The position numbers were made by a program, and so were the translations under genes. Below, piece by piece: positions 11,276 through 11,555 of a stretch of DNA of 64,000 nucleotides; within the stretch, counting starts at the first letter, position 1, and every line of letters starts with the position of its first letter. A model generated the notes under the pieces. The model was not told the DNA's origin, did no database searches, and saw only the letters and a program-made list of their open reading frames with translations. The DNA is from Escherichia coli (GTDB lineage: Bacteria; Pseudomonadota; Gammaproteobacteria; Enterobacterales; Enterobacteriaceae), in assembly GCF_044324875.1 (NCBI RefSeq), contig NZ_CP172185.1; one strand, written 5' to 3'.

Positions 11276-11524
11276 TTAGTGAAAAAACCAGTCATCAGCA
11301 GTTTCCCAGACTTCCTGCAGCGTTTCCTGTATGAACTTCTGAGCGTTTTCTTTATCTACGGCTCTTAAAATGGTCAGTCCGTCATTACTGGCGGATTTTA
11401 CTATAACCTCCACATCGTCATATCGTTTTCTGATACGGCGAGACATTTCCTGTTGTAGAGCAGGTACAGAGCCTTTTGGCATTTTGCTGAATTTTTCTTT
11501 AGCGATACAGATCTCAACACGCAT
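11276..11524 (-). CDS. dinI: DinI-family protein (prophage-encoded)
   Basis: 82 aa; MRVEICIAK...[14 protein letters not shown] aligns with E. coli DinI (MRIEVTIAK...ETWESADDWF); RBS AGGAGGG. Confidence 0.8.
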
Positions 11525-11539
11525 AACCCCCTCCTGTAA

Positions 11540-11555
11540 CTGTAGTTATGTACAG
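11540..11555. promoter_or_regulatory. LexA-box-like operator CTGT-N8-ACAG immediately upstream of the dinI-like gene
   Basis: ctgtagttatgtacag matches the CTGT-N8-ACAG SOS box pattern. Confidence 0.5.

Follow-up and report, generated by a model that had tools for sequence, protein, structure and literature searches.

The dinI-like gene at the attR end of a lambdoid prophage

The window, by which we mean the whole 64,000-nucleotide stretch of DNA analysed here, is part of an E. coli chromosome in which a lambdoid prophage contributes its late (tail) arm, at positions 1 to approximately 11738, and the btsS-btsR-yeh region makes up the rest. The initial annotation described a dinI-like gene at the end of a prophage, and the junction bears this out: homology to K-12 (the 5' end of mlrA, and btsS) resumes at 11739, and positions 11739-11758 carry, on the minus strand, the attR core CCTGTCACGTTACGCGCGTG. 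This is the 20-bp att annotated in AP000400.1, the record of VT1-Sakai (Sp15, the Stx1 prophage of O157 Sakai), which occupies the same yehV/mlrA site with the same core. In the window the core lies inside mlrA (yehV; transcriptional activator MlrA), whose coding sequence (11741-11806, minus strand) is cut after 22 codons, with a stop codon where the att core ends. Counting inwards from attR, the dinI-like gene comes first, being the last gene of the prophage, and its start codon is 215 bp away from the junction; the DinI-like gene H0001 of VT1-Sakai ('DNA-damage-inducible protein I') is likewise the first gene inside its att junction. Between the att core and the dinI promoter, two ATGCCCCAT(A/T)G-type repeats were seen (11604-11624, minus strand), and three of them are present in VT1-Sakai and BP-4795; these repeats may be the integrase arm-type sites of the attP arm.

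On its other side the dinI-like gene keeps company with tail-fibre and adhesin genes. One of these, a gene for a YadA/Eib-like trimeric autotransporter (9095-10375), contains an in-frame stop codon (9926-9928) between the passenger/stalk and the YadA anchor. In strain Ch1 the autotransporter gene is one intact coding sequence with a different N-terminal part, and the gene is therefore a mosaic.

The dinI-like coding sequence (11276-11524, minus strand) encodes 82 amino acids and belongs to the family of RecA-filament-binding DinI proteins, as the initial annotation had proposed. The protein matched the Pfam DinI profile PF06183 with 69.9 bits (cutoff 24.2; E = 2.4e-19), its residues 16-80 aligning to positions 1-63 of the 63-position profile, and it matched PHROG 189, 'RecA filament binding protein DinI' (E = 2.3e-27). 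E. coli DinI itself (PDB 1GHH/7YWA) gave a full-length match (E = 4.7e-13), with residues 1-79 of 1GHH aligned to residues 1-81 of the query and 38 of the 79 aligned residues identical. The match thus combines a profile score above the curated threshold with full-length coverage of a small, single-domain protein of about 80 residues. On the RecA filament, DinI makes its contacts through a hydrophobic pocket (L13, L21, W71, W77 and F78) and an acidic patch (E24, E69 and D76) (PMC9926225). The corresponding residues of the window protein are, for the pocket, M15, L23, W73, W79 and F80, and, for the patch, E26, E71 and D78, so that seven of the eight are identical and the L13 to M15 change is conservative. 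As these contact residues are conserved, we infer, with good support, that the 82-aa protein binds RecA filaments.

The Tum antirepressor of phage 186 is likewise a LexA-controlled phage gene product with DinI-like sequence (PMC3121763), but it is 146 aa long and joins an N-terminal antirepressor half of approximately 70 aa to a DinI-like C-terminal half. A Tum-type fusion of antirepressor and DinI was ruled out for the window protein by its length of 82 aa and by its coverage of positions 71-148 only of the 151-position PHROG 189 profile.

Predicted promoter, LexA-type sites and predicted transcript end

Upstream of the gene, the minus strand reads TTGACA-CTGGTTATCCACACAGCT-AAAAAT-AAC-ACCTGTACATAACTACAGTT-AC-AGGAGGGGG-TT-ATG. 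A promoter scan predicted a consensus -35 element, TTGACA (11585-11590), at the upstream edge of the conserved cassette, and a -10 element, AAAAAT (11561-11566; alternatively TAAAAA at 11562-11567). With a spacer of 18 nt, this is a near-consensus promoter that matches at 10 of 12 positions. The Shine-Dalgarno sequence AGGAGGGGG, read from the sequence at 11527-11535, lies 2 nt before the ATG, and its AGGAGGG is conserved in the closest homologues.

The initial annotation had drawn attention to a CTGT-N8-ACAG palindrome 16 bp upstream of the start codon and beside the Shine-Dalgarno sequence, a placement that the positions confirmed. The palindromic core CTGTACATAACTACAG occupies 11540-11555 on the minus strand of the gene (the plus strand reads CTGTAGTTATGTACAG), and ends at position -16, counted from the A of the start codon (11524). 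The 15 nt in between consist of TTAC, AGGAGGGGG and TT, which leaves a gap of 4 nt between the core and the Shine-Dalgarno sequence. In its 20-nt form this proximal box is ACCTGTACATAACTACAGTT (11538-11557, minus strand). A second LexA-like box, CACTGGTTATCCACACAGCT (11567-11586, minus strand), lies 29 bp upstream of the proximal box and had been overlooked. It fills the spacer between the -35 and -10 elements, taking in also the final 2 nt of the -35 element. The proximal box begins 3 nt downstream of the -10 element and covers the predicted transcription start (approximately 11553-11557), extending from about +1 to +20. An operator in either place would be able to block the predicted promoter.

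As the bare CTGT-N8-ACAG pattern was not significant alone (two occurrences in the window against 0.64 expected, with two or more in 14 of 100 shuffled sequences), the full LexA matrix was used for the test. Heterology index (HI) values were obtained with the Berg-von Hippel / Lewis formula, applied to 18 LexA boxes of E. coli K-12 (PMC3009722, Table 4; the SOS review PMC6590174 is without LexA box sequences), and, coming from an 18-site matrix, they are on a scale that differs from the published one of Lewis et al. Both strands of the 64-kb window were scanned, for a total of 128,000 positions, and the two best (lowest) HI values were those of the distal box (8.42) and the proximal box (8.49). 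Sites with an HI of 8.5 or less are expected by chance 0.03 times (300 Markov-1 simulations) to 0.08 times (exact calculation, independent-base model) per 64 kb, and two such sites within 40 bp occurred in none of the 300 Markov-1 simulations.

When each of the 18 verified boxes was scored with itself left out of the matrix, their HI values ranged from 0.6 to 12.8. The two window sites rank approximately 13th of 19 on this scale, ahead of ruvA, uvrB, ftsK, dinB, polB and dinG. With a symmetrised matrix the distal and proximal boxes scored 9.97 and 11.44, ranks 2 and 3 in the window, with the next site at 14.31; the corresponding leave-one-out range of the verified boxes was 2.0-17.0, the proximal value equalled that of dinG, and only dinB and polB were worse. 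Both sites therefore resemble the 20-bp TACTG(TA)5CAGTA-like sites of the E. coli LexA regulon and fall within the score range of verified boxes, at its weak end. The description of the palindrome as LexA-box-like thus survived matrix scoring, an HI of 8.49 not counting as a poor score even though it makes the proximal box a moderate-to-weak one, and we regard the two sites as genuine-looking LexA boxes of modest predicted affinity.

Two other sites in the window deserve mention. The second CTGT-N8-ACAG occurrence (CTGTTTGTTGTAACAG, 15990-16005) is outside the top 25 LexA-matrix sites and is therefore a chance match. A LexA-type box, AACTGGATAAAATTACAGGG (34861-34880, minus strand), was third in the window with an HI of 10.1 and, at 9.86, first once the matrix was symmetrised. 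Judged by collinearity with strain Ch1, the site falls within the 3' end of metG, approximately 590 bp upstream of a WGR/DUF4132 (molR-like) gene. We take this site to be the published molR LexA/SOS box, and it is useful as a positive control for the matrix scan.

Transcription from the predicted start would give a leader of approximately 30 nt. At the other end of the gene, RNA folding identified a terminator-like hairpin (11171-11207, minus strand) that consists of GGCGUGUUC, a 9-nt loop and GAACACGCC, followed by UUUCUGAUAUUU. Its 9-bp GC-rich stem is present in both the minimum-free-energy and the centroid structures (z = -2.08 for the 116-nt stretch), and it starts approximately 68 nt after the dinI stop codon. 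The hairpin was not reported by the terminator scan because its loop of 9 nt exceeds the limit of 8 in that scan; it may act as a terminator. No ORF of at least 30 aa was found on the minus strand between 10893 and 11275, and the next gene (10437-10892), which encodes a sigma-70 region 4-like HTH protein, is convergent, and therefore the dinI-like gene looks monocistronic. The unannotated stretch from the sigma-like HTH gene to the putative dinI terminator contains, on the plus strand, a 31-aa, very hydrophobic ORF (MKITKAAFIFALSVWSVAVICLLLFVLVVLG, 11004-11099), which had no PHROG match and may encode a small membrane peptide or have no significance.

Conservation of the cassette and comparison with known systems

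A scan of viral contigs yielded 198 relatives, of which 80 loci were kept and to which further phage records were added; many of the prophage predictions among them end exactly at the dinI-like gene. Upstream sequence was available for 57 loci and reduced to 25 distinct 60-nt upstream regions. In these, CTG-N10-CAG was kept at both box positions in 21, at the proximal position only in 2 and at neither in 2, so that the proximal motif is conserved in 23 of the 25 distinct regions. The distance to the ATG is 12-15 nt for the proximal box and 40-42 nt for the distal box, or about 13 and about 41 nt in the 21 regions that keep both. The half-sites were retained across 6 proximal and 7 distal variants of the N8 spacer, and this constancy of half-sites between variable spacers is the pattern expected of a protein-binding palindrome. 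More distant relatives (approximately 65% amino-acid identity, such as that of mEp460) have better boxes, for example TACTGTATACAAACACAGTA (HI 2.8) and CACTGTTTATCCATACAGTT (HI 5.8), and better versions of the distal box (HI 4.6-5.8) also occur.

Conservation of the boxes has its exceptions, some of them among close relatives. A half-site of the distal box is changed to CAA in BP-4795 and in locus L010, and a half-site of the proximal box to TTG in locus L011; the operators are thus under less than absolute selection. Centre to centre, the boxes are 26 to 29 bp apart, and this variation speaks against binding that is strictly cooperative. In L011 a half-site is altered by point changes in each of the two boxes, and in L026 (245-590) the promoter and both LexA boxes are replaced, up to the Shine-Dalgarno sequence, by unrelated sequence in which no LexA-like site was found.

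The boundary of the conserved unit is sharp. Alignment A1 is conserved from TTGACA on, with at least three unrelated classes of sequence upstream of it, and homology to prophages elsewhere in E. coli genomes, or with other integration modules, ends at 11590. In mEp460, whose record has a promoter annotated at the equivalent place, the cassette directly follows int, while in the window it follows the attP arm. Because conservation starts at the -35 element and the neighbours are unrelated, the promoter, operators and gene behave as an independent module. A megablast search with the 341-nt cassette found a relative in 424 of 5,426 complete E. coli genomes (approximately 8%), at up to four places per genome, a count that leaves out more distant alleles. 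The phage fragments P-EibA and P-EibC were also seen to carry related dinI cassettes. A second clade of prophage dinI genes, located in the nin/replication region (SPN3UB, mEp237, and Klebsiella and Aeromonas phages), has one strong box (HI 0.8-3.1) 15-19 nt from the ATG.

The closest annotated counterpart is VT1-Sakai. AP000400.1 carries the feature 'misc_binding: LexA protein, putative SOS box' on a proximal 20-mer, ACCTGTACATAACTACAGTT, that is identical to the one in the window, and a 'putative promoter' on TTGACACTGGTTATCCATACAGATAAAAA (the equivalent TTGACA...TAAAAA), before H0001. The feature is thus already known, and what the initial annotation observed is real but ordinary. The promoter is the same in both prophages, and the VT1-Sakai distal box, CACTGGTTATCCATACAGAT, differs from that of the window at 2 positions; AP000400.1 annotates one SOS box only and leaves the distal box unannotated. 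The distal box is the sole item for which we found no annotation, and we offer it as a small refinement. The stretch between the att core and the ATG (214 nt, 11525-11738) is 89% identical between the window and VT1-Sakai, whereas the dinI coding region and H0001 share 74% nucleotide and 66% amino-acid identity (the L086 comparison). The cassette is therefore a mosaic, and this step in identity suggests recombination near the start codon of the dinI-like gene. The two prophages also differ downstream, where VT1-Sakai continues with another small gene (H0002, YkgJ-like), assigned by its annotation to the same promoter, and the window has the hairpin and then the convergent gene.

The chromosomal dinI of K-12 (b1061) belongs to the same family, with the same RecA-contact residues, and its LexA box also starts with ACCTGT just upstream of the Shine-Dalgarno sequence. 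It differs in being a core gene, between pyrC and bssS, and in its LexA box, which is stronger (HI 3.7), stands alone and lies 19 nt before the ATG; no second LexA site with an HI below 13 was found in the 130 nt upstream.

In Salmonella, LexA control has been demonstrated by experiment for the dinI homologues of Gifsy-1, -2 and -3, which belong to another clade of prophage dinI genes: they lie behind LexA boxes, and DinI accumulates after mitomycin C (PMC3121763). These homologues were increased 4.6- to 23-fold with nalidixic acid (PMC8072944). The Gifsy LexA box, or LexA-controlled locus, is required for induction, because this locus also carries an antirepressor. When the Gifsy dinI homologues were deleted in a non-polar manner, no effect on induction could be measured (PMC3121763). 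As in the window, a DinI homologue directly follows a LexA box and promoter in each of these prophages. The Gifsy gene, however, heads a dinI-antirepressor-irsA operon 1.3 kb from the replication genes, has its one strong box (HI 3.9-5.3) 19 nt before the ATG and leads into the antirepressor gene, which triggers induction, whereas the window gene lies at the att end with two weaker boxes before it and no gene behind it on its strand. A Gifsy-type dinI-antirepressor operon was rejected for the window on the empty minus strand in 10893-11275 (ORFs of at least 30 aa), the hairpin with its U-tract and the attR location. Since the antirepressor partner is missing, the window gene is not a Gifsy-type induction module.

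Elsewhere, the dinI-like locus c0943 changes together with sulA, umuD, recN and dinI (PMC2817434), a hint that prophage-type copies are co-regulated with SOS genes. Two papers on EHEC (bioRxiv 2022.08.08.503262; PMC11125564) deal with the chromosomal dinI only and contain nothing on the prophage copy, and in the Druantia/Zorya preprint DinI serves only as a tool.

Probable LexA control, its rivals and its possible consequences

The anatomy of the locus comprises the dinI-like gene, a promoter match, two LexA-type sites that bracket the promoter core, their conservation and a position at the att end. We consider it highly probable that these elements make up a self-contained, LexA-repressed dinI cassette (a 'moron', or phage-carried accessory gene) at the attR of a lambdoid prophage inserted in mlrA. 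LexA binding and induction of the window gene by DNA damage are what we infer from its sequence and from what is established about the SOS system, and LexA regulation is supported by the placement of the two best HI scores of the window 29 bp apart before dinI, where 0.03-0.08 such sites were expected. The promoter geometry, the conservation of both boxes, the annotation of VT1-Sakai and the precedent of the Gifsy homologues speak for it too, and the suggestion of SOS-coupled expression in the initial annotation is thereby supported.

According to this model, the near-consensus sigma-70 promoter would drive a single gene, dinI. As long as the DNA is undamaged, LexA dimers would occupy one or both boxes and would exclude RNA polymerase from the promoter or prevent it from leaving. 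RecA filaments activated by DNA damage would stimulate LexA self-cleavage, and, given the modest predicted affinity of the boxes, the dinI promoter should open, probably early. The resulting mRNA would have a leader of about 30 nt and would probably end at the hairpin 68 nt or so past the stop codon. The 82-aa protein keeps the hydrophobic pocket and acidic patch that E. coli DinI uses in the RecA filament groove, and should for this reason supplement the DinI made by the host, so that RecA filaments are stabilised and RecA co-protease activity is damped.

It is also conceivable that the boxes are decaying remnants, bound by LexA too weakly to matter, and that dinI is expressed constitutively, or leaks, from its strong promoter. 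This would agree with scores at the weak end of the verified range when relatives score clearly better (HI 2.8 and 5.8), and with the occurrence of relatives whose half-sites are broken (L010, L011 and BP-4795). We nevertheless think it improbable, as the CTG and CAG half-sites are intact in both window boxes and the weak proximal 20-mer is unchanged in VT1-Sakai despite the 74% nucleotide identity of the coding regions. Moreover, the verified host dinI operator also starts with ACCTGT, the verified dinB and polB boxes score worse, and two sites that bracket the promoter core should be additive.

Operators of phage repressors of the CI or Cro type are also short palindromes that lie over promoters, and the bare CTGT-N8-ACAG pattern, not being significant alone, would permit a chance match as well. 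That the palindromes are either of these rather than LexA sites is very unlikely, however, as the match to the full 20-nt LexA matrix is far beyond chance and near-perfect LexA boxes (HI 0.8-3.1) occur in the prophage dinI clade of the nin region. In addition, the neighbouring modules are unrelated in the various prophages that carry the cassette, which a host factor fits better than a phage-specific immunity repressor does. The palindrome might instead work as RNA, in the form of a leader hairpin that hides the ribosome binding site, because the box is 4 nt from the Shine-Dalgarno sequence and within the leader if the predicted transcription start is right. This reading is barely credible: the leader folded no better than shuffled sequence (-9.0 kcal/mol, z = +0.83, with 159 of 200 shuffles folding as well), and the predicted hairpin excludes the Shine-Dalgarno sequence. 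The z value of +0.83 led us to reject a leader hairpin, and repression by LexA at the DNA level is the reading we retain.

A more ambitious version of the LexA-repressed cassette is possible, though we hold it only tentatively. The distal site could be a real second LexA operator, in which case the cassette would be an SOS moron with dual operators, travelling as one unit, exactly from its -35 element on, between lambdoid prophages with unrelated integration modules, and its extra DinI could shift RecA co-protease output in lysogens. If this were true, additional SOS-induced DinI might raise the threshold for CI cleavage and prophage induction, and it might alter SOS mutagenesis and quinolone survival. 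In one study, the genes linked to emerging quinolone resistance included a prophage DinI-like gene (PMC10575684).

On its own, the locus is of little importance: it has the features of a textbook phage accessory gene wired into the host SOS regulon. Its two-box layout is conserved in the att-end clade and carries no annotation. Tools that call prophages 'SOS-dependent' from any LexA box of low HI that lies in a prophage promoter (e.g. PSOSP, PMC12527982) could be misled by cassettes of this kind, because the boxes would control an accessory gene and not the lysis-lysogeny switch. With close relatives of the cassette in about 8% of complete E. coli genomes, some of them multicopy, the dose of DinI would differ between strains, and such a strain-dependent dose could affect SOS mutagenesis and the quinolone response (PMC10575684).

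A search of the window for structured RNAs returned four Rfam matches at the gathering score, at 22190-22265, 22800-22873, 45905-46001 and 62965-63050. They comprise two OrzO-P antitoxin RNAs (of the zor-orz type I toxin-antitoxin system), a TPP riboswitch and the CyaR sRNA, all of which are known families.
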